Assembly (NCBI GenBank): GCA_017461945.1
Contig: JAFTSB010000057.1
Location: forward strand, 3,594 to 67,593
Length of the DNA stretch: 64,000 nt
Source: Clostridia bacterium
GTDB taxonomy: Bacteria; Bacillota; Clostridia; Oscillospirales; CAG-272
Direction of reading: 5' to 3'
Shown here piece after piece: positions 52,061 to 64,000 of the stretch; positions within the stretch are counted from its first letter, which is position 1; every line of letters starts with the position of its first letter. The position numbers and the translations under genes are program-made. The notes beneath the pieces are model-generated. The model did no database searches. It was given only the letters and a program-made list of their open reading frames with translations, and was not told the DNA's origin.

Positions 52061-52927
52061 ATGGAAAAGAACATACAAAAAAAGCCCCCATTCTACGCGG
52101 TAGACCTGGGGGGGATTCAATTAAAGGTGTTTATCGTGGGTGCCGATCCGCGCATCAAAAAACGTGCCAGAACCGAACGCGACCCCGAGGGGATGAGAGG
52201 GGTACATACGCACTTTGCCTACGAGGTGTTTTTTGTAACAGCAGGCACCCTGCGCTTGGTTACCGAGGACGATACCAAAGAATACCGCCGTGCCGTGCTG
52301 GTGATCCCACCCCACGTCAATCACTATTCTGCCCCCGATCGAGAGGGCAGCTTTTGCTTGTTGTTTGCGCCGGAGGAGGGCACAAACAGCGAAACGGTAT
52401 TGAAAAAACGGATGGAAGCCGGCGTTTGCGAGCTGCCGCTGGATGAGGACATCGCCTTTTATATCGATCGCTTGGCAAAGCGTTATTGTGAGGATACTCC
52501 TACAGCCCAGCGCGACGTGGAGTTGCTGATCTCCCTGATCTTTAATCGCATGTTTGCGGTGCTGAAGCCAGATCAACCTGCCCCCAAGCGCACAGGCGCA
52601 GTCTCACACATTGGCGCCATTGACAGTTATATCAATCATCGACTTTCCAAACGCATCACCCTGACCGATGTGGCGGAGCACGTGTATCTCAGCACCAAGC
52701 AGATCTCTCGCATTATCGAAAAGGAATATGGCTGCTCCTTTTCGGAGCTGGTTGCCACCAAACGACTGGCTCGCGCCGAAATGCTGCTGAAAAACACCGA
52801 TATGCCTGTTTCGCAGGTGGCCTCTGCCGTGTTTCCATCCTCCGAGGGGTATTTCTATGTGCTGTTCAAAAAACGCTTCGGCATCTCCCCCCTCCAATAC
52901 CGCAAGGAGAGCCGGAACTTCAAATAA
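52061..52927 (+). CDS. AraC-family transcriptional regulator
   Basis: C-terminal HTH pair (VAEHVYLSTKQISRIIEKEYG, VASAVFPSSEGYFYVLFKKRFGISPLQY). Divergent from the GH51 gene. Confidence 0.85.
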   Translation: MEKNIQKKPPFYAVDLGGIQLKVFIVGADPRIKKRARTERDPEGMRGVHTHFAYEVFFVTAGTLRLVTEDDTKEYRRAVLVIPPHVNHYSAPDREGSFCLLFAPEEGTNSETVLKKRMEAGVCELPLDEDIAFYIDRLAKRYCEDTPTAQRDVELLISLIFNRMFAVLKPDQPAPKRTGAVSHIGAIDSYINHRLSKRITLTDVAEHVYLSTKQISRIIEKEYGCSFSELVATKRLARAEMLLKNTDMPVSQVASAVFPSSEGYFYVLFKKRFGISPLQYRKESRNFK

Positions 52928-52929
52928 AC

Positions 52930-52958
52930 AAAAAGCCGCACACGGTGCGGCTTTTTTG
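52930..52958. terminator. bidirectional intrinsic terminator at the core/island boundary
   Basis: GCCGCAC-ACG-GTGCGGC flanked by A5 and T6. Confidence 0.8.
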
Positions 52959-52962
52959 TGTT

Positions 52963-54339
52963 TTATTTAGGCATTCGGTCTTTTCTTGACTTCATGCCAT
53001 AGTAGGAGTTTCCTTGCCACGAATGGTCATAAAAGACGATTTCCGGTATCATCACGCCGGCCTCAAAAAAAGGATTGTGATAATAATTCTTGGCGGGAAT
53101 GGAATAAATTTTGGCTAATATACCATTTTCGATAAAGAACAATTGGTTTTTCAATACTTGTAAGGGCGAACAAAAGCAGTGCAATTCTTCAAAGCCCTCG
53201 TCTATATAGATTTTGGCACAGACATAGCACTCATCTGCCGAATTATACACGCCGTCGTTCCCTTTGTATTTTATGTTCATGTCATTGGCGTAAATGTCCG
53301 TAGCCGGGATATTTTGCGCCAAAAGATAGTTTTTCCCGGCTTCACTTAACGGGAGGGCATCAAGCTGGCCGTTTTCGGCGTGCGTGCTGCCCGGAATGTA
53401 AAACTTTACTTGTTTGCCGTGTTCCTTTAATTCGTGGTAGAGTGCTATTCCTGCGTTTAAGCGGCTACAAAATTCCTCGTTGGGTGTGTCGCCGTTGACA
53501 AGAGGATGTTGTGCAGATATTTGAATCAGAACACGTTTGGGATCAGCGACTTGCGTTTGTAGGGCGTGTTTGTATTTTTCGGCCCAATACACCTCTGCAG
53601 TATTTTCCCATGATGGGCTAATGTTCCAAACCGTGTTAAAATGTTCTGTTAACATATAAACAAAATTATCGTTTTCTTGCTGCAGCGCGGCGGTTTGACA
53701 GTCCATTCGGAACAAAATATGCTCCTTGGCTTTTGCAGGGGGGAGCGTAATATTTAGCCATACCGAGGTTTTAGCCTTGGGCGAATTTTCGTCAAAAGAA
53801 GCAATGACCAAAGGGAGCCGATATTCACTGGAAAAGTAGCGGACCTGCAGCTTGTTTTTCGATCCGCGGTTCAGATTTTCTAAAATTTCGTGTACCCGAT
53901 CCACTTCCAGATCTATGTTATCCTCAAAGGAGCGATAAGAAAATTCATGCTCCATGTTTTTGATATCCTTCAAAAATGGATTGTTTTTGCGAGAAAGAAG
54001 GATCTCGATCTTCGCACCTCTTGCCAATGCCTTTTTGATCATTTCCTGCTTTTTGATATCACTAAAAAAGCCTATGCCCGTTACAAAAATCAATTTGATC
54101 GTGTGAGCGTGAGAAAAAATGTAGCGGTATTCCTTTTCTGTAATATTTTTGTTGGATATGGAAGAAAGAAATCCATATTTTGAAAGCTCATTTGCAAATG
54201 TAATTTTGCTGATATATTTTTTTGTGAAAATAACAGCAATAAAGCCCGTTATGGCGGCCACGATCAGAGACTTTAGAATGTCGCTCCAAAAAGCGATGTG
54301 ATCAATGCTTGTCCAAAGCGCAAGATAATGATTAGGCAT
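52963..54339 (-). CDS. membrane-anchored fusion protein: N-terminal TM helix, unknown middle domain, C-terminal DUF218/YdcF-like domain
   Basis: AAGGAG SD 8 nt before ATG 54339. TM segment LKSLIVAAITGFIAVIF. C-terminal VLIQISAQHPLVNGDTPNEEFCSRLNAGIALYHE...LSEAGKNYLLAQNIP fits the DUF218 pattern. Visibly AT-richer than the core. Confidence 0.65.
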   Translation of the reverse strand: MPNHYLALWTSIDHIAFWSDILKSLIVAAITGFIAVIFTKKYISKITFANELSKYGFLSSISNKNITEKEYRYIFSHAHTIKLIFVTGIGFFSDIKKQEMIKKALARGAKIEILLSRKNNPFLKDIKNMEHEFSYRSFEDNIDLEVDRVHEILENLNRGSKNKLQVRYFSSEYRLPLVIASFDENSPKAKTSVWLNITLPPAKAKEHILFRMDCQTAALQQENDNFVYMLTEHFNTVWNISPSWENTAEVYWAEKYKHALQTQVADPKRVLIQISAQHPLVNGDTPNEEFCSRLNAGIALYHELKEHGKQVKFYIPGSTHAENGQLDALPLSEAGKNYLLAQNIPATDIYANDMNIKYKGNDGVYNSADECYVCAKIYIDEGFEELHCFCSPLQVLKNQLFFIENGILAKIYSIPAKNYYHNPFFEAGVMIPEIVFYDHSWQGNSYYGMKSRKDRMPK

Positions 54340-54433
54340 GGCAAGAACTCCTTGTTCTTTCGATGAGATGAAGCCGTGTGCGACAGGATTGGTGTTACAG
54401 TTACGTAAGACCACTCCATTGGTGTGTAGTTAT

Positions 54434-54462
54434 AGTGTAACATATATCGAACAGTTTGTCAA
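54434..54462 (-). promoter_or_regulatory. sigma-70-like promoter of the DUF218-fusion gene
   Basis: On the minus strand: TTGACA (54462-54457), 17-nt spacer, TACACT (54439-54434). Confidence 0.6.
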
Positions 54463-54561
54463 TTTCGATTACAGGAAAAGAGCGGCGACCGTTTGTGTAC
54501 TGCTGGCTGCGACTCATATGCTACTTTGCACCGTCGCACATTTGTTGGATAACCCAGAACG

Positions 54562-54598
54562 CAAAAAGCTCCCATCGCTTTGTGCGATGGGAGCTTTT
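54562..54598 (-). terminator. intrinsic terminator directly after the tRNA-Arg 3' fragment
   Basis: On the minus strand: AGCTCCCATCGC-ACAAA-GCGATGGGAGCT followed by TTTTT, starting 1 nt after the CCA. Confidence 0.85.
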
Positions 54599-54642
54599 TG
54601 GCACCCGCAGCGGGAATCGAACCCACAACTAACCCTTAGGAG
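54599..54642 (-). pseudogene. 3' half of a split tRNA-Arg(CCT) gene (anticodon loop to CCA)
   Basis: The minus strand reads CTCCTAAGGGTTAGTTGTGGGTTCGATTCCCGCTGCGGGTGCCA. This is the T arm GTGGG-TTCGATT-CCCGC and acceptor 3' strand TGCGGGT. There is no 5' half adjacent. Confidence 0.85.
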
Positions 54643-54778
54643 TTTTTATTGGTGTTCATTTCTATCTGTGTGTGGGTGTTTTTCTTGCAAAACAAGCGTA
54701 AAATCGACCGAAACGATAGATCTTACGCTTGGTAGGTTGTGTGTTTGTTGGTGGTTTTTGTAGTGCTTTGTAATGTGC

Positions 54779-54803
54779 GGGTGTACAATGGGTGGACAAA
54801 AAG
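54779..54803 (+). repeat. left copy of the 25-nt motif GGGTGTACAA-N-GGGTG-N-ACAAAA
   Basis: GGGTGTACAATGGGTGGACAAAAAG, compared with GGGTGTACAAAGGGTGTACAAAACAG at 56981-57006. Same orientation. Confidence 0.8.
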
Positions 54804-54813
54804 TAAAGTGCGT

Positions 54814-55575
54814 TTATTTGGTTTCGTTGCCATAAATCCGATCAATTTTATCGTTTATTTTTGTTTTTGCCAATAATTCACTCTGCATATTATTCAGAAC
54901 AGACATTTTTTCGTCAATTATTAGAGATTGAAAATGAGCGTGGATGTTATCATACAAAATGTATTCATCATAAGAGCCTTCTTCATAATTGGTGATAACA
55001 GCGTTAATTCGGTTGTTCGCTGTGTAGTCATATTCAGCCAAAGCTCTAATCATAGAAATCATTAAAGCTTTAATGCCGTTTATAGTATTTTCTTTTGGCT
55101 TCCATATTGTATTGCAATAGTCATCTATTATTGAGTACATTGAATCAAAATCAAAACTGGCTATTCGGTTAATTCTGTTATATAAGTCTATTACGAGTGG
55201 TTTATTATATGCGTGGTTGTTCAGCTTTAATTTTTCAAGTTTCTCGAAATCATCTTTATCCAAATTAGTAAAATTTATGTTGTAATTAACCTTGGTTCCC
55301 TTATGAGAATACCAATTAGCAACAGATCTTATTAAGTTTACGCAAGTTATGAATTTTGTATTGAAATCTCGTTCGTATTCGAATTTTATGGAATAAAAAT
55401 TTATAAAGGCTAACGTACCGCTTAGAAAAGCTCCGCCCACAAGTGATATGAATATGTTCAAAAACACTTCAAAAACAGGATGGCAATTTTTTAATGGAGT
55501 AAAGACACATATACACAAAATACTTAGTAAAAATGAGACTAGCGAAATCCAAAAAACTAATTTATTTATTTTCAT
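54814..55575 (-). CDS. hypothetical membrane protein (253 aa, two N-terminal TM helices plus a soluble domain)
   Basis: AGGTGA SD before ATG 55575, with its own TTGATT...TATAAT promoter-like signal upstream. TM segments LVFWISLVSFLLSILCICVF and FLNIFISLVGGAFLSGTLAFINF. Confidence 0.7.
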   Translation of the reverse strand: MKINKLVFWISLVSFLLSILCICVFTPLKNCHPVFEVFLNIFISLVGGAFLSGTLAFINFYSIKFEYERDFNTKFITCVNLIRSVANWYSHKGTKVNYNINFTNLDKDDFEKLEKLKLNNHAYNKPLVIDLYNRINRIASFDFDSMYSIIDDYCNTIWKPKENTINGIKALMISMIRALAEYDYTANNRINAVITNYEEGSYDEYILYDNIHAHFQSLIIDEKMSVLNNMQSELLAKTKINDKIDRIYGNETK

Positions 55576-55684
55576 CAATGTTCACCTATGATTTTTTATT
55601 ATATTATAGCATAAAGCATAATAAAATCAATGTATTTTACAAGCATACAAACCGTTGAAAATACTCTTTTGGGGAACAGGATAA

Positions 55685-55730
55685 GAGGAGGGGCTAAATT
55701 GCCATCACTGCGTGAATTTAGCCCCTCCTC
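55685..55730. repeat. perfect 16-bp inverted repeat with a 14-nt spacer
   Basis: GAGGAGGGGCTAAATT (55685-55700) and AATTTAGCCCCTCCTC (55715-55730), GC-rich arms in AT-rich intergenic DNA. Confidence 0.85.
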
Positions 55731-55760
55731 GATTGCTCAAAAGCGGGATACCCGCCTTTA

Positions 55761-55922
55761 TTATTTGGTTGAAAGTATTGCTGAAAGTGCAGCCAATATT
55801 TCCAGAGGATGCTTGGCTTTGTCTATGGATTGCTTCAATAGTTCCTTATCTAAATCGGTTAGCGGATGATTTGAATGATCAACCAGTAATTTCCACATAG
55901 TTTTAACTTGTTGTTCTGTCAT
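55761..55922 (-). CDS. small hypothetical protein (53 aa), below the ORF-track size cut-off
   Basis: ATG lies 1 nt after the upstream gene's TGA (TGATATG). MTEQQVKTMWKLLVDHSNHPLTDLDKELLKQSIDKAKHPLEILAALSAILSTK, followed by a short GCGGG/CCCGC hairpin plus TTTT. Confidence 0.5.
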   Translation of the reverse strand: MTEQQVKTMWKLLVDHSNHPLTDLDKELLKQSIDKAKHPLEILAALSAILSTK

Positions 55923-55923
55923 A

Positions 55924-56829
55924 TCAAAGTCCTAAAATTTGTTTTTTCTTTTGCTCATAATCTTCTTGTGTAATCAATCCGTCATCAAGCATTTCTTTTA
56001 ATTCTTGGAGTTTCTCTTTTGAGGAAGTGGGAGTTTTTGAAAAAGCTCCCGCAAAGGGCGTTACTGCATCTTCAAGTTTTCTTGCATTTAACACAAATTC
56101 AAGTTCTGAACATACAGCATGCAAACTTTTTCTCGCTTCTTTGTAAATGTTAGTAGACTTGTTAATGTTTCCGCCGTTTATAAATGCTATATTAAGCTGA
56201 GTGTTTGCAGAATCGTTTATGCGAATAATTAATTCTAATTGAGAACACATTTCGTTTATTGACCTGCCGACATTACTGCCTACAATCATTCCACCAAGTC
56301 CGAAAAACGCTCCGCCTATCAATGCACTACCTGCCGTTCCTTCTACTTCGCGCCTGCCATTTTCATATACTTCGTAATTGATGATGTCAGAAAAGTTATA
56401 GGTTTTTGAAAAAGTGGATTTTACTTGATAGATAAACTTTTTGTTTTTGTCGTCAATTAAAAGTTTTTTGGTGGTTCGTCCCTTGCCAAAAATCATTATA
56501 ATTTTAGACAATACAAAATTGCTATCAGGGATCCCTGCTTGAGGGGTTAATGCTTCGATGCCTTCGGGCAAACAGGCAATATGCTTGCACATCATATAGT
56601 CGATAATCCAACCGTAGTCGCTTCTAGTTTTATATACATACATAAACCAAATGCAAACAAACAAAGTGGAAATGAAAAAAAGCAAACTTAAAGTGAGCAA
56701 AGCCCTTTCAAACAAGAGAGACAGCACTACACATACAAGCATCATAATACATGCGACAACACCCAAATATGTGGAAAACAACCAAAGTGCCTTCCTCTTT
56801 TTAATAATTTGAATTGGATCGATATTCAT
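55924..56829 (-). CDS. membrane protein with a C-terminal SHOCT domain (301 aa)
   Basis: AGGAGAG SD before ATG 56829; the track ORF extends upstream into the tRNA. Two TM helices, a glycine zipper GSALIGGAFFGLGGMIVGS, and the SHOCT-like tail KLQELKEMLDDGLITQEDYEQKKKQILGL. Confidence 0.75.
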   Translation of the reverse strand: MNIDPIQIIKKRKALWLFSTYLGVVACIMMLVCVVLSLLFERALLTLSLLFFISTLFVCIWFMYVYKTRSDYGWIIDYMMCKHIACLPEGIEALTPQAGIPDSNFVLSKIIMIFGKGRTTKKLLIDDKNKKFIYQVKSTFSKTYNFSDIINYEVYENGRREVEGTAGSALIGGAFFGLGGMIVGSNVGRSINEMCSQLELIIRINDSANTQLNIAFINGGNINKSTNIYKEARKSLHAVCSELEFVLNARKLEDAVTPFAGAFSKTPTSSKEKLQELKEMLDDGLITQEDYEQKKKQILGL

Positions 56830-56879
56830 ATGGTACTCTCCTAATTTGAATTGACGGAATGATCCTTCCAAAATCAATA

Positions 56880-56954
56880 TGGCACCCCCAACGGGAATCG
56901 AACCCATAACTAACCCTTAGGAGGGGTTTATTATATCCATTTAACTATGGAGGC
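56880..56954 (-). tRNA. tRNA-Arg(CCT), complete, carried inside the insertion
   Basis: The minus strand folds by hand into a 75-nt cloverleaf. Acceptor GCCTCCA/TGGGGGT, D arm GTTA..TAAT, anticodon arm AACCC-CTCCTAA-GGGTT, T arm ATGGG-TTCGATT-CCCGT, then G-CCA. Confidence 0.85.
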
Positions 56955-56980
56955 GTGCTATTTAATTGTGATTTTCGCTT

Positions 56981-57006
56981 GGGTGTACAAAGGGTGTACA
57001 AAACAG
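56981..57006 (+). repeat. right copy (tandem GGGTGTACAAA x2) of the motif also found at 54779-54803
   Basis: GGGTGTACAAAGGGTGTACAAAACAG, about 90 nt inside the right junction. Confidence 0.8.
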
Positions 57007-57095
57007 CGATTAGCAGGTTTAGGACACAAAATCCTTGTAGTGTTTGAGTCTATCCTCATAAGGTTTCATTCTATCCTCGCGGATAGACCTACCGA

Positions 57096-57133
57096 TTAGG
57101 AGGGGCTTGTTATATCCATTTAACTATGCAGGC
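57096..57133 (-). pseudogene. 5' half of the split tRNA-Arg(CCT) gene (acceptor 5' strand to anticodon loop)
   Basis: The minus strand reads GCCTGCATAGTTAAATGGATATAACAAGCCCCTCCTAA and then diverges (TCGGTAGG...). GCCTGCA pairs with TGCGGGT of the fragment at 54599-54642. Confidence 0.85.
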
Positions 57134-57405
57134 GTATTCAATTTTTGACACCGTATCGGCGTTTTTGTCGCATTTTGCTGCCAAATAGGTGCTGTTCGGC
57201 AGCAGCAACAGTGGAGCATCGCCCCGACACAACGGCTTGTGCATTACAGAGTATACCACATTTCGGACAAAAAGGCAAGAGCTTAAAAAAGCTTTTGGCA
57301 AGATTTTATGTGCGGTCAAGTGTGTTCCGTGCTCGCCAGGGAAAGTAAAAGTATGAGTTTCTTGAAATTTGATCGCAAAAAGTTCAAAAATCTTGGAAAA
57401 AGAGC

Positions 57406-57435
57406 TTGACATTTGCTTCTTGATTATGTTATAAT
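57406..57435 (+). promoter_or_regulatory. sigma-70-like promoter of rplU-prp-rpmA
   Basis: TTGACA (57406-57411), 18-nt spacer, TGtTATAAT (57427-57435). Confidence 0.7.
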
Positions 57436-57523
57436 AAATGGCCGCTTGAAAAAGGCTATGTGAAGTGTATCCTCGCGATACCGCCTGAGATCAGCGAGTC
57501 TATAAGAAAGAGAGGTGCTTTTC
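57436..57523 (+). promoter_or_regulatory. 5' leader of rplU; possible L21-leader-type autoregulatory RNA
   Basis: An ~88-nt untranslated leader between the promoter and GTG 57524. It sits in the position where Firmicutes carry the L21 leader. The structure was not verified. Confidence 0.3.
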
Positions 57524-57835
57524 GTGTACGCAATTATCGAAACCGGCGGAAAGCAGTACAAGGTCAACGAAGGCGACGTTATCTTCGTTGAAAAGCTCGG
57601 CGTTGCTGAGGGTGAGACCGTAGAGTTCACCAATGTAAAGGCTCTGTCCAAGGACGGCGCTCTGGTTGTTGGTACTCCCGTTGTTGAAGGCGCAAAGGTT
57701 ACCGCTACCGTTGTAAAAGAGGGTAAGGGTAAGAAGGTCGTTGTCTTCAAGTACAAGTCCAAGAAGAACGAGAAGAAGAAGATGGGCCACAGACAGCCCT
57801 ACACGAAGGTTCAGATCAACGCTATCGTTGGTTGA
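57524..57835 (+). CDS. rplU: 50S ribosomal protein L21
   Basis: (V)[27 protein letters not shown] start after GAGAGG. Confidence 0.95.
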
Positions 57836-57837
57836 TC

Positions 57838-58215
57838 ATGACGACCATCACATTTTTCAGAAGCGACGGTATCTTTTACGGGTTTGAGGAAAAGGGCCAC
57901 GTTGGCTATGGCGAGTGGGGCAGCGATCCCTTCTGTGCAATGCTTTCCTCCCTGACCATGTACATCGTTGACGCCATTGAGGAGGTCTATCATGGCGAGG
58001 TCACTTACGATATCAACGACGGTGACACGGTGATTACCATTCGCTCCAAATCCGCTCTCCCTGCCTATGAGGCTGATGAGCGCGTACGCTTTGCCGTTTC
58101 GGGCTTGTTCCTTACGTATTATACGATGCTTGAGGATATGCTGCTCCACGGTGATATGTACGAGTTCACGGGGGACGGTGGCCTCGTCGTAAAGGTCGAG
58201 GACAAAGAATTTTGA
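57838..58215 (+). CDS. prp: ribosomal-processing cysteine protease Prp
   Basis: The His/Cys dyad context GHVGYGEWGSDPFCAMLSS, located between rplU and rpmA. Confidence 0.85.
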   Translation: MTTITFFRSDGIFYGFEEKGHVGYGEWGSDPFCAMLSSLTMYIVDAIEEVYHGEVTYDINDGDTVITIRSKSALPAYEADERVRFAVSGLFLTYYTMLEDMLLHGDMYEFTGDGGLVVKVEDKEF

Positions 58216-58281
58216 CCAAAACCGCCATTGGCGGTATCCGCACACGCACGTGTGTAATTTGATAAGGAGGATTTTCGAACC

Positions 58282-58560
58282 ATGTTGAGAATCAGCTTGC
58301 AGTTCTTCGCCCACAAGAAGGGCGTTGGTTCTACCAAGAACGGCCGCGATAGCGAGTCCAAGCGTCTTGGTGTAAAGGCAGCAGACGGCCAGACCGTAAC
58401 CGCCGGCAGCATTATTGTTCGCCAGAGAGGCACTGCTATTCATCCCGGCAACAACGTTGGCATCGGCAAGGACGACACCCTGTTTGCTCTCATCGAGGGT
58501 AAGGTGAAGTTCGAGCAGAAGAGCCGCGACAAAAAGCAGGTTAGCGTTTACGCCGACTAA
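58282..58560 (+). CDS. rpmA: 50S ribosomal protein L27 with a Prp-cleaved N-terminal extension
   Basis: [32 protein letters not shown]. Confidence 0.95.
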
Positions 58561-58574
58561 ATTTTGTACAGAAT

Positions 58575-58608
58575 AAAAAGGGCGCGCCATCATGGCGCGC
58601 CCTTTTTA
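58575..58608 (+). terminator. intrinsic terminator
   Basis: AGGGCGCGCCAT / ATGGCGCGCCCT followed by TTTTT. Confidence 0.85.
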
Positions 58609-58732
58609 GCATTGCCAAGAGGTGGTCGACGTACTTTTGTACGCCTTGGCCCCCCTTGGCAATGCATCTGCCCCAAAATCGATTGTCGCAACAATCTTTT
58701 TTGAAAAAAGCCAAAAAAATTCAAAAACCCCC

Positions 58733-58761
58733 TTGACAAACCCGTTGTTTTTTAGTATAAT
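58733..58761 (+). promoter_or_regulatory. sigma-70-like promoter of tRNA-Ser
   Basis: TTGACA (58733-58738), 17-nt spacer, TATAAT (58756-58761). Confidence 0.75.
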
Positions 58762-58777
58762 ATATGAGTCGCAGCAC

Positions 58778-58869
58778 GGAGAGATGGCTGAGCTGGTCTA
58801 AGGCGCACGACTGGAAATCGTGTTAGGGCTAATACCCCTACAAGAGTTCGAATCTCTTTCTCTCCGCCA
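58778..58869 (+). tRNA. tRNA-Ser(GGA)
   Basis: 92 nt. Acceptor GGAGAGA/TCTCTCC, anticodon arm CACGA-CTGGAAA-TCGTG, long variable arm, T arm AAGAG-TTCGAAT-CTCTT, then G-CCA. Confidence 0.9.
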
Positions 58870-58873
58870 CGAC

Positions 58874-58902
58874 AAAAGGACGTCCGAAAGGGCGTCCTTT
58901 TT
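58874..58902. terminator. bidirectional terminator between tRNA-Ser and the integrase gene
   Basis: GGACGTCC-GAAA-GGGCGTCC flanked by A4 and T5. Confidence 0.8.
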
Positions 58903-58906
58903 GCAT

Positions 58907-59764
58907 TTAAAACACCTCCAGGCAGCGCTTTTGCACGCTGACGTCCGGGTGCAGATACGTATCGGCGGTGATCGCGATATCAGAGTGGCCGAGCACGTCG
59001 GAAATGATTTTGAGATCCACGCCCTTTTTCAACATCAACGTAGCGTAGCTGTGCCGGAGATCGTGAAAGCGTATGTTAGGGAAATCGAAATTCTCAAGCA
59101 AGATCTTAAATCGGTTCTCCATCTGATTAGGCGTGAGCTTGCAAGCGTAGGATCCGTTATAGGGAGTACAGCATAGCATATCAAAATGCTCCGGTCGCAG
59201 AAGGATGTACCGATCAGAGTCCTCGGTCTTGCAAGGAGTGACCACCTCGCGACCGGACTCCCAGGATCGAGACCGCTGCACGTGCAGCGTCATATCACAC
59301 GGATCCAGGTCGCGCTCTGGGATGATGCCAAGGCACTCACCGCGGCGCAGGCCGTAGCACAGCGCCATGGTCACCGGGATTTCCAGGGAAGTTCCCTGAA
59401 CACAATCAAGCATACGGCGCATCTCGCTTTCCGGCAACACTTGATATTTATACCGGTTGATCCGGGGGAGATCAAAGCGGCCGTAAGGATTGAAATCCAT
59501 ATAACCGCGCCGGATCGCGTAATTGATCATCTTGCGCAACGTGGCGTGCACGTAGACGATCGATCGGTTAGAAAGGCCACGGCCTTTCAGCAGCTCGGTG
59601 AGGAAATCAAGATCAGATACGGTCAGACTGTCGGCCGGAAAGTCACCGAACGCAGGCAGCACGTGCCGGTGCAGGTTCACCCGGTACCCGCGCACGGTGG
59701 AGGGGCGCAACCGGCGCTCACAGTAGTTTTTGAGGAATTCCTCGGCAAGGGTGTTAATGGTCAT
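58907..59764 (-). CDS. tyrosine site-specific recombinase/integrase
   Basis: SAM-like N-domain (NTLAEEFLKNYCERRLRPSTVRGYRVNL). Catalytic contexts LRRGECLGI, HDLRHSYATLML and GHSDIAITADTYLH. Confidence 0.9.
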   Translation of the reverse strand: MTINTLAEEFLKNYCERRLRPSTVRGYRVNLHRHVLPAFGDFPADSLTVSDLDFLTELLKGRGLSNRSIVYVHATLRKMINYAIRRGYMDFNPYGRFDLPRINRYKYQVLPESEMRRMLDCVQGTSLEIPVTMALCYGLRRGECLGIIPERDLDPCDMTLHVQRSRSWESGREVVTPCKTEDSDRYILLRPEHFDMLCCTPYNGSYACKLTPNQMENRFKILLENFDFPNIRFHDLRHSYATLMLKKGVDLKIISDVLGHSDIAITADTYLHPDVSVQKRCLEVF

Positions 59765-60762
59765 TTCATTTTCTCCTTTTCTTCATCGGTCATTTGTCTG
59801 ACACGGGTCATACGGTAGCCAAAACCTACCATCCACTCATACGTAACGACGACGTACTCAACGTCACGACGCAACTGCTCGTTATCGGTATATACAAGAT
59901 CACCATCAGTCACGTCATCCAGCTTGAGCTTGCGCGCAATTTCCTTAAAAACTCCGGTAAAAGAGCACAAGCGCCGACCGGCAAGCGCGGTAGACAACAG
60001 ATCTACAGCACGATCAATCTGCTGATCAGTTCCACGCAGATAATCAGCATCTTTCAACGTATACTTAGCCACCTCAAGGACGGCGCCCTTCAAACTGACC
60101 TCACCGTCATCCATTTCACGAGCTCGCACCTTGTGAATCTCTACCGAAGGATCATAATCCAAACGGCAGCACTCACGCCAAAGCTGCATAAGCTCATCGT
60201 GGTTTATGTAATCCTTACCGTGAAAGTAAGATTCTCTAACGGCAATAATCAAATGCAAATGGGGATGCCACTCAATGCTCCGAAAATACTCCGGGTGGCG
60301 CGTAATCTCAACGGCTTTGAAAACGCCTTTGAATGCTCGATGCACTTTGGCGCGCTGCATAAAACGATTAAAAGCACTTTGGATATCATCTAAGGTACGA
60401 ATCAAATCTGATCCGGCACAGTTCCGAACGGTCAGAGTGCAAAAAACAAAGCGATACCCTTGTGCAGACAACACGTCCATGATCTGCGAGATCTGGCCGT
60501 AAATCTTACGTGTTCGTCTCCACGTACACATGCGACAAAGGCGATCTTTACAAAAATTAGCAAATGATAGCCGAGGAGGGGAACCATCTGTAAAAAAATG
60601 CCACTCGGTATACGTACCACACAGCTCCACAAGTTTGGCACGATCGTGCATACCAAGCCGCTGATAAGAAAAGATCAAGGGCTGATTATCAAGCTTTCGA
60701 TCCACAAACTTGGTGCCAAGCTCACCGCTCTCCAGCTCGTGAGCGGTATCATCAAAATTCAA
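59761..60762 (-). CDS. rolling-circle replication initiator, Rep_1 (pC194/pUB110) family
   Basis: HUH motif WHPHLHLIIAV, active-site Tyr context LEVAKYTLKD, and Cys-rich FANFCKDRLCRMCTWRR. The stop overlaps the integrase ATG (ATGA). Confidence 0.85.
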   Translation of the reverse strand: MNFDDTAHELESGELGTKFVDRKLDNQPLIFSYQRLGMHDRAKLVELCGTYTEWHFFTDGSPPRLSFANFCKDRLCRMCTWRRTRKIYGQISQIMDVLSAQGYRFVFCTLTVRNCAGSDLIRTLDDIQSAFNRFMQRAKVHRAFKGVFKAVEITRHPEYFRSIEWHPHLHLIIAVRESYFHGKDYINHDELMQLWRECCRLDYDPSVEIHKVRAREMDDGEVSLKGAVLEVAKYTLKDADYLRGTDQQIDRAVDLLSTALAGRRLCSFTGVFKEIARKLKLDDVTDGDLVYTDNEQLRRDVEYVVVTYEWMVGFGYRMTRVRQMTDEEKEKMK

Positions 60763-63771: not shown

Positions 63772-64000
63772 GCACGTTCTCCCTTCTCAATCAGACTGTG
63801 AGCGAACCGGGGAATAAACACCACGGCGTCAAACAGGCAATGGGCAACCTCTACGCAGATCAGATAGGAGAGAAAGCCGGCAAGCTGCAGTTCGGCGCCA
63901 AAGGCGGTGGTCCAAACGTTGTTGATGATATCCCGGATAAAAGGAAAAGCAAACTGCTCGTCAATGAACGTGAGGATCTCCGGCGCGGATCCAATACGGT
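63756..64000 (-). CDS. 3' end of a gene truncated by the window edge (hydrophobic protein)
   Basis: My own translation of the minus strand gives ...FIDEQFAFPFIRDIINNVWTTAFGAELQLAGFLSYLICVEVAHCLFDAVVFIPRFAHSLIEKGERACTRE*. The stop overlaps the start of the 494-aa gene. Confidence 0.4.
   Translation of the reverse strand, partial: RIGSAPEILTFIDEQFAFPFIRDIINNVWTTAFGAELQLAGFLSYLICVEVAHCLFDAVVFIPRFAHSLIEKGERACTRE

Follow-up and report, generated by a model that had tools for sequence, protein, structure and literature searches.

Here we analyze a stretch of 64,000 nucleotides (nt) from the genome of a Clostridia bacterium (contig JAFTSB010000057.1 of assembly GCA_017461945.1), referred to below as the window. 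In it a tRNA-Arg(CCT) gene is cut in two at its anticodon loop by a cassette of 2453 bp (positions 54643-57095) that carries a complete tRNA-Arg(CCT) of its own. Both halves of the host gene lie on the minus strand. The 5' half (57133->57096) reads GCCTGCATAGTTAAATGGATATAACAAGCCC-CTCCTAA and runs directly into non-tRNA sequence (tcggtaggtctatcc...); the 3' half (54642->54599) reads CTCCTAA-GGGTTAGTTGTGGGTTCGATTCCCGCTGCGGGTGCCA, and the sequence that precedes it (...caccaataaaaa) is likewise foreign to the tRNA. The seven nucleotides of the anticodon loop, CTCCTAA, are the sole sequence common to the two halves. When the halves are joined in silico (57133->57096 plus 54635->54599), ARAGORN calls a 75-nt tRNA-Arg(CCT) in which seven of seven acceptor pairs are formed. 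The target gene is regenerated at neither junction, the element-side sequence being non-tRNA at both. The insert also stands out by its base composition, with a G+C content of 30-38% against approximately 50% in the flanks. An earlier note on this DNA, written by a model from the letters alone, had proposed such a split, and the coordinates and sequences that it gave for both halves and for the insert are all as it claimed.

The same note proposed, as a check, to look for the uninterrupted gene in related genomes, and it is found there. Contigs from the same or closely related organisms were obtained by exact-protein look-ups of the neighbouring genes (for L21, a look-up from the GTG start gave no match and a shorter start gave matches). 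In two of these contigs (L012 and L013; contigs and loci are cited by such numbers below) the tRNA-Arg(CCT) is uninterrupted and lies between rplU and the open reading frame (ORF) of 458 amino acids (aa) that also adjoins the split gene in the window. This gene is identical to the in silico join, and the 5' half in the window is 100% identical to its positions 1-38. ARAGORN calls the intact gene at both empty sites and only the internal tRNA at the occupied locus. The occupied arrangement is present, in identical form, in six metagenome contigs (represented by L001-L004 and L011; L005, L006 and L008-L010 are repeat fetches of four of the six). Samples with the occupied locus include ERZ28654584, ERZ28018778, ERZ28654056, ERZ28654190 and ERZ28653727. 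The gene was split either by an insertion that duplicated only CTCCTAA or by crossing over within CTCCTAA.

The internal tRNA is a complete and structurally sound gene, as the earlier note had read it. It differs from the joined host tRNA at six of 75 positions, and among these differences are two compensatory pairs: the acceptor pair 5:68 changes from G-C to C-G, and one T-stem pair changes from G-C to A-T. An identical tRNA sequence is found in the cassettes of six other species-level genomes. The note had also pointed to AGG codons in the cargo; they number four among 611 codons there, compared with four among 3870 in sampled host genes. In Table 1 we list the features of the locus.

Table 1. 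Features of the split tRNA-Arg(CCT) locus and of the cassette, in window coordinates
Feature	Position	Strand	Description
Promoter-like site of the host tRNA-Arg(CCT) unit	57250..57278	minus	TTGCCT-17-TATACT, with TG before the second hexamer (consensus scan)
Host tRNA-Arg(CCT), 5' half	57096..57133	minus	tRNA positions 1-38; ends in the anticodon loop CTCCTAA (57102-57096); attL-type junction
Conserved left end (L)	57037..57095	minus	tcggta-GGTCTATCC-gcga-GGATAGA...GGATAGAC...AAACACTAC; one inverted and two direct copies of a GATAGAC-type motif; from the alignment of left ends of 26 genomes
Left arm-like motif (M), tandem	56981..57003	minus	TTTTGTACACCCTTTGTACACCC; 26 nt upstream of the cassette tRNA, approximately 100 nt inside the left junction
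Replacement tRNA-Arg(CCT), complete	56880..56954	minus	ARAGORN; Rfam tRNA model, 58 bits against a gathering score of 29
Cargo ORF, 301 aa	55924..56829	minus	Membrane protein; PH_gly_zipper match and C-terminal SHOCT domain (phrog_888)
Cargo ORF, 53 aa	55761..55922	minus	No family match; called as a gene in L001-L004
Conserved non-coding element, approximately 95 nt	55666..55759	minus	GGTGGGTATCCCAC hairpin, second long hairpin (invariant loop GTGAYGGCAATTT), invariant TTATCCTGTTCCCTAAAAT
Cargo ORF, 254 aa (253 aa from ATG)	54814..55578	minus	No family match
Right arm-like motif (M)	54779..54801	minus	TTTTGTCCACCCATTGTACACCC, near copy of the left motif; approximately 140 nt inside the right junction
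Conserved right end (R)	54643..54668	minus	CAGATAGAAATGAACACCAATAAAAA; adjoins the core; from the alignment of 23 right ends
Host tRNA-Arg(CCT), 3' half	54599..54642	minus	tRNA positions 32-75; begins with the second CTCCTAA (54642-54636); attR-type junction
Native host tRNA terminator	54562..54600	.	Perfect 17-bp hairpin and T run; also present after the intact gene in L012

The cassette belongs to a large family. A scan with the motif TTGTMCACCCNTTGTACACCC, using one genome per species, finds 47 loci where approximately two would be expected by chance from the length of the pattern, and nearly all of them are in metagenome-assembled genomes (MAGs) of uncultured Clostridia, Oscillospiraceae or Eubacteriales from ruminant and other guts. 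In approximately 27 of the 47 a tRNA-Arg(CCT) begins 26 nt downstream of the motif. Mapping with permissive patterns recovers a shared order in approximately 39: 5' half, left end (L), motif (M, the tandem TTGTACACCC repeat), full tRNA, cargo, motif, right end (R) and 3' half. Distances hardly vary among them, with the tRNA 179 nt from the 5' half and the 3' half 157 nt from the motif. The 26 aligned left ends share the block CTCCTAA-G.GGTAGGTCTATCC-N4-aGATAGAC..AAAC..TAT..GGATAGAC, and the 23 aligned right ends share GCAGATAGACACGAACACTTATGAAAA-CTCCTAA. The left arm-like motif is invariant in the 26 members. In the whole window nine motif matches are found (2.6 expected), four of which are the copies inside the cassette. 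The shared core, seven base pairs here, is extended to eight (CTCCTAAG) in 24 of the 25 other aligned members. A scan of viral contigs with the arm motif gave two high-GC phage contigs (L016, L017), which we set aside as unrelated; they have no tRNA or related genes.

Every family member that we mapped is flanked by the CTCCTAA of a tRNA-Arg(CCT) and carries a tRNA-Arg(CCT) of its own. The end modules of the window cassette are 83-93% identical to the ends found in other species. Its host flanks match nothing among the family loci, and the cargo proteins have almost nothing in common from one locus to another. Where both junctions are visible, the outer halves pair with each other at seven of seven acceptor positions, and their acceptor stems differ from that of the internal tRNA and from host to host (GCCTGCA/TGCGGGT in the window, GTCTTCA/TGGAGAC in L038, GCTTCCG/CGGGAGT in L056). 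By these sequences, the insertions in different hosts are independent and site-specific. Many of the units, the window cassette included, are 1.2-2.7 kb long and lack an integrase. One such cassette, with a DUF4236 cargo gene, is 90.8% identical in two species with different flanks (L040 and L058), and the homology stops approximately 28 nt into the 3' half.

Some loci (L033, L049, L067, L068 and L169-L173) have another kind of replacement tRNA-Arg(CCT). This “type B” tRNA is 77-78 nt long (GTCGGGTTAGCTCAGTTGGATA...GCGCC-CTCCTAA-GCGC...), and some of the units that carry it have an integrase. No split copy of this type is seen among the family loci, and it might be a poorer target for further insertion.

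Several members of the family encode tyrosine integrases (L030, L026, L166 and L169). In the first three the protein has 532-540 aa and its gene stops approximately 215 nt short of the motif, right end and core. Phage_integrase and a SAM-like domain are recognised in it, and its relatives in the Protein Data Bank (PDB) are among the tyrosine recombinases. A second integrase-like ORF (336-378 aa) precedes it, and in L166 four copies of TGTACACCC occupy the motif position beside the integrase. The larger relatives also encode a primase-polymerase (NrS1-1 HBD), DUF3846, two DNA methylases and DUF1281_C; in the parts of the autonomous relatives that were read (up to approximately 10 kb) there is no capsid or terminase gene. 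Comparison with relatives suggests that the element of L030 and L067, which lie on the same contig, is 10 kb or more in length, rather than the 4 kb that would follow if the two were adjacent 8-kb chunks. The integrase family comprises 310 protein clusters at E <= 1e-30. One integrase-bearing element (P0015), with a 78-nt tRNA-Arg(CCT) of its own, is inserted at the CTCCTAA of two types of host tRNA-Arg(CCT) (L169, L173). In L026 further right-end modules come after an integrase-bearing unit, so that autonomous and non-autonomous units lie together.

More distant integrases in viral and metagenome collections (56% identity or less) lack the exact motifs of the family; those in human-gut metagenome contigs are 48-57% identical to the integrases of the family. 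Some of them lie near a tRNA-Gly(CCC) and tandem TACACCC-like repeats; others are accompanied by junctions at which non-tRNA sequence meets CTCCTAA and the 3' half of a tRNA-Arg, as at the right end of the family. These features are found approximately 900 nt after the integrase in L086 and L091, and approximately 6 kb upstream in L087, L089 and L090. These integrases may be canonical or may also destroy their tRNA, and the strategy may extend to related integrase clades and to other tRNAs.

The units are also found inside one another. In L069 and L034 the 5' half of a cassette tRNA, identified by its own motif 26 nt upstream, is followed by another left end, motif and tRNA. On the opposite side, right ends and 3' halves occur in series in L043, L026, L058 and L061. 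In one case the same cassette can be seen in both states: it is intact in L036, and in L061 another complete cassette lies to the left of its tRNA 3' half and its cargo (94% identical). Other units are decayed or rearranged. Degenerate 5' halves occur in L040 and L061, and L023 has a hybrid tRNA; in L023, L055 and L060 a full tRNA is followed directly by cargo, motif and right end. The chimeric and simplified units would be explained if recombination had joined non-cognate junctions or the 38-nt direct repeats formed by the 5' halves. A contig labelled Parasutterella excrementihominis (L037, CAVJMJ010000014.1; minus strand, approximately 640-900) has an AT-rich stretch in which a right-end-type sequence, CTCCTAA and a left end form a junction, followed by the motif and a hybrid tRNA. 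The two halves of this tRNA come from different tRNA-Arg(CCT) types and its acceptor stem is mismatched. Non-cognate junctions have probably recombined to give this stretch, and the contig is possibly that of a mis-binned Firmicute.

We now turn to the cargo. The three ORFs of the window cassette are co-oriented, and none of them is a recombinase, transposase or virion gene. The 254-aa protein is rare, with eight clusters in a collection of 5.8 billion proteins. Searches of phage and plasmid collections with the whole insert (BLAST) match the tRNA only, and the PADLOC defence models match neither the cargo nor the 458-aa neighbour. Distant homologues of the 254-aa protein (47-48% identity) are encoded in L018-L021 and L022. 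In L018 the homologue adjoins a DUF4238 protein and an MmeI-type restriction-modification enzyme, and in L022 its neighbours are a PH_gly_zipper/SHOCT protein and a Fic protein, with an intact tRNA-Arg(CCT) upstream. There are thus hints of a role of the defence-island type for the cargo. The conserved non-coding element of approximately 95 nt is present on the tRNA strand in approximately 22 cassettes (nhmmer; e.g., L022 2414-2529, L053 7520-7635, L070 1146-1253), usually just upstream of a cargo gene and often 20-60 nt from its start codon. It has no Rfam match, and covariation is weak (two of ten pairs compensatory by RNAalifold), so we refrain from calling it an RNA; possible roles are those of a promoter, an operator or a module boundary.

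Two side observations concern the host DNA that borders the split gene. Between the promoter-like site and the start of the 5' half there is a leader of approximately 115 nt (57134-57250, minus strand), which is unusually long for a tRNA gene, differs between strains and has no Rfam match. Directly downstream of the tRNA terminator is the 458-aa ORF (52963-54339, minus strand), with a G+C content of 35-45%. It is present in empty and occupied contigs alike, and no match to it is found in Pfam, PHROG or PADLOC.

What kind of element is the insert? We consider it probable that 54643-57095 is a non-autonomous member of a site-specific, integrase-dependent integrative family that targets the anticodon stem-loop of tRNA-Arg(CCT). 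In the mechanism that we propose, a tyrosine integrase of the heterobivalent type would recombine a 7-8-bp overlap of the element, CTCCTAA(G), with the anticodon loop of the host gene. The overlap region of tyrosine recombinases is 7-8 nt long. Because the anticodon loop is all that element and target share, the junctions contain a dead 5' half and a dead 3' half; the host gene is destroyed, and the complete tRNA-Arg(CCT) of the element would take over. The right side of the element core (G.GGTAGGT) resembles GGGTTAGTT of the tRNA, which makes it a plausible site of the core type. Putative arm-type binding sites of the integrase are the tandem TTGTACACCC repeats to either side of the core: in a circular form of the element the left and right repeats would flank the core as arm sites flank an attP of the lambda type. 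The predicted attP junction of the cassette is ...CACCAATAAAAA-CTCCTAA-TCGGTAGGTC.... Either an accessory factor or the second integrase-like protein may be the ligand of the GATAGAC repeats.

The tRNA and cargo of the cassette would be expressed by read-through from the promoter-like site of the host tRNA unit, which we take to act as its promoter, via the 5' half and the left end. A consensus scan lists no minus-strand terminator-like site between this promoter-like site (57278-57250) and the cassette tRNA, nor between the cassette tRNA and the first ORF, which makes read-through of tRNA and cargo plausible. Every unit has kept its tRNA, with compensatory changes, which is indirect evidence that an integrant may need it. 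With three cargo genes and no recombinase, the window cassette would have been moved by an integrase acting in trans or by one that co-resided in an array. After insertion the only intact attB is the tRNA of the element itself, so the model predicts the nesting that is observed: the next element inserts into the tRNA of the resident one, and nested arrays build up.

Several observations weigh against this reading. The 64-kb window contains no integrase of the family; its only recombinase (58907-59764) lies beside a tRNA-Ser and is 24% identical to the family over the catalytic domain. Pfam does not detect an arm-binding N-terminal domain in the family integrase, the element regions that flank the core have no clear dyad symmetry, and neither a circular attP junction nor an excision product of the window cassette was seen. 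At attL the core is followed here by a T, where 24 of the 25 other aligned left ends have G and L024 has A; the T could impair excision. Finally, the empty and occupied alleles are not isogenic. Rightward of the anticodon loop they are 99.86% identical, while leftward the identity is 90% overall and falls to 78% in the 470 bp adjoining the tRNA (window 57096-58160 and 52555-54642 were compared for the two sides). The break in identity falls exactly at the insertion point. The difference in presence and absence may therefore have been spread by homologous recombination and not by a fresh integration.

As for the recombinase in the window, it has 285 aa, is a tyrosine recombinase encoded on the minus strand, and follows at once on a tRNA-Ser(GGA) (58778-58869, plus strand). 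After it comes a Rep_1 rolling-circle replication protein (59761-60762, minus strand). The region 58778-60762 looks like a separate small integrative, plasmid-like element, and no repeat of the tRNA-Ser 3' end is found up to position 64000.

These observations can be put together differently, with the cassette as a dead relic: an integrase-bearing element would have lost its integrase and most of its genes by internal deletion, and the polymorphism would spread only via recombination in the flanks. The lack of a recombinase, the aberrant T at attL and the decayed units elsewhere in the family are all in keeping with such a history, and the abrupt change in flank identity is more readily read as recombination than as simple insertion or excision. 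Against it, no integrase remnant lies beside the right motif; the 254-aa ORF stops 13 nt before it. Moreover, at least five integrase-less units with matched halves and wholly different cargo keep the ends, motifs and tRNA at conserved spacing, and the DUF4236 cassette is shared by species whose flanks differ. We therefore regard a dead relic as unlikely, and retain the reading of a non-autonomous member of an integrase-dependent family. The break in identity is not fully explained by it and suggests that homologous recombination around the tRNA has also shaped the distribution of cassettes.

Two further explanations fare worse. A transposon-like insertion that duplicated a 7-bp target site and struck the anticodon loop by coincidence would produce an exact 7-bp direct repeat around the insert and a single copy in the empty site, as observed. 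However, no terminal inverted repeats are present among the inverted repeats found, there is no transposase, the family encodes tyrosine integrases and not DDE enzymes, and every member is flanked by the same CTCCTAA of tRNA-Arg(CCT). Because the target is always the anticodon loop, a chance target is excluded, and we hold a transposon to be very improbable. Least credible of all is an intron (group I or II), or some other transcribed intervening sequence, that would be spliced out of the RNA of a still working gene: the interruption does sit in the anticodon loop, where group I introns of bacterial tRNA genes are known, but no intron family matches 54000-59000 at E <= 1, the 7-nt loop is duplicated, which introns do not do, the conserved ends are DNA repeats of the kind seen at att sites, and inside the insert are a tRNA, three ORFs and hairpin or terminator-like structures.

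It is tempting to go one step further and to propose that the tRNA-Arg(CCT) of many gut Clostridia is a self-renewing capture platform, at which small recombinase-less cassettes are mobilised in trans by a dedicated tyrosine integrase, the target is destroyed and renewed by each arrival, and nested, hypervariable cargo is placed on the host promoter. We offer this tentatively, as a proposal that falls somewhat short of an even chance. The fresh tRNA would then both sustain the decoding of AGG and form the next attachment site, and a tRNA gene would become the basis of an integron-like system. A target that consists only of the invariant anticodon loop would give such a system a very broad host range; the core in this loop is the same in every tRNA-Arg(CCT) that we examined.

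The findings have several implications. The strategy of destroying a tRNA gene and bringing a substitute is extended beyond actinobacteriophages to non-phage elements of anaerobic gut Firmicutes, and the approximately 39 species-level genomes recovered by a single motif scan suggest that it is common there. When the replacement tRNA is the next target, elements nest and integrase-less cassettes with hypervariable cargo accumulate, a consequence not described before that may amount to a distinct route of gene capture. The integrases of the family could serve as integration tools for a broad range of hosts, with the tRNA providing built-in selection. For annotation, tRNA halves and runs of 179-nt repeats beside tRNA-Arg(CCT) in Clostridia MAGs represent real biology and not assembly noise.

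How does the family compare with known systems? Canonical islands that use the anticodon loop (Islander database; Prochlorococcus tycheposons) resemble it in being tyrosine-integrase elements with specificity for one tRNA and a crossover in or near the anticodon loop, and also in their repeated integration, their islands marked by tRNA fragments and their cargo-carrying forms. Canonical elements carry the displaced part of the tRNA in an att block of approximately 40 nt and regenerate the gene at one junction (PMC4383910; tycheposon preprint), whereas the window cassette regenerates it at neither. Successive canonical elements stand in tandem with the older ones pushed outward; here they are nested inside the tRNA of the previous element.

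Integron cassettes and the cis-mobilizable elements (CIMEs) of streptococcal integrative and conjugative elements (ICEs) are likewise small units without a recombinase, with hypervariable cargo and conserved recombination ends. By analogy, the present cassettes would accumulate at one chromosomal platform, with the recombinase encoded elsewhere and the cargo mostly co-oriented with an upstream promoter. The platform would differ from that of integrons in being a tRNA gene that each unit renews, and the arrays are nested and not linear. No IntI-like gene is found among the ORFs of the window near the site (attC sites were not searched for), and the resemblance is probably functional only.

The closest precedent is tRNA-dependent lysogeny, described for the actinobacteriophages Fionnbharth, LeBron, Gaia and others (Guerrero-Bustamante and Hatfull, mBio 2024, PMC10865867). 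In these phages the common cores are 8-17 bp long, no tRNA is rebuilt, the cognate phage tRNA is required for viable lysogens, pairs of putative arm-type sites flank the core, and the tRNA target varies among related integrases; the paper names prophage Lj965 of Lactobacillus johnsonii as a likely case outside the Actinobacteria. The earlier note did not recognise the strategy as a described one. In this it was mistaken, since the same logic had been shown experimentally in that study. The two systems share an attB inside a host tRNA gene that is not rebuilt, a short core, a cognate tRNA encoded by the element, tyrosine integrases (here in the relatives of the cassette) and putative arm-type pairs around the core. 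They differ in host (gut Clostridia, not Actinobacteria) and in the kind of element, which here is not a temperate phage, the parts read lacking capsid and terminase genes. The window cassette has no integrase of its own, such genes being present only in other members of the family, and many of the units are integrase-less cassettes of 1.2-2.7 kb, unlike the elements of that study. The fixed 179-nt spacing of the replacement tRNA, its re-targeting and the nested arrays are not reported in that paper either. In the full-text literature on tRNA-dependent lysogeny, Lj965 and tycheposons, which leaves subscription journals mostly uncovered, we met with no account of such cassettes lacking an integrase, of the nested arrays or of this family in Clostridia. 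The destroy-and-replace class of mechanism is thus known, while the type of element, its non-autonomous form, the self-renewing target and the nesting seem to be new.

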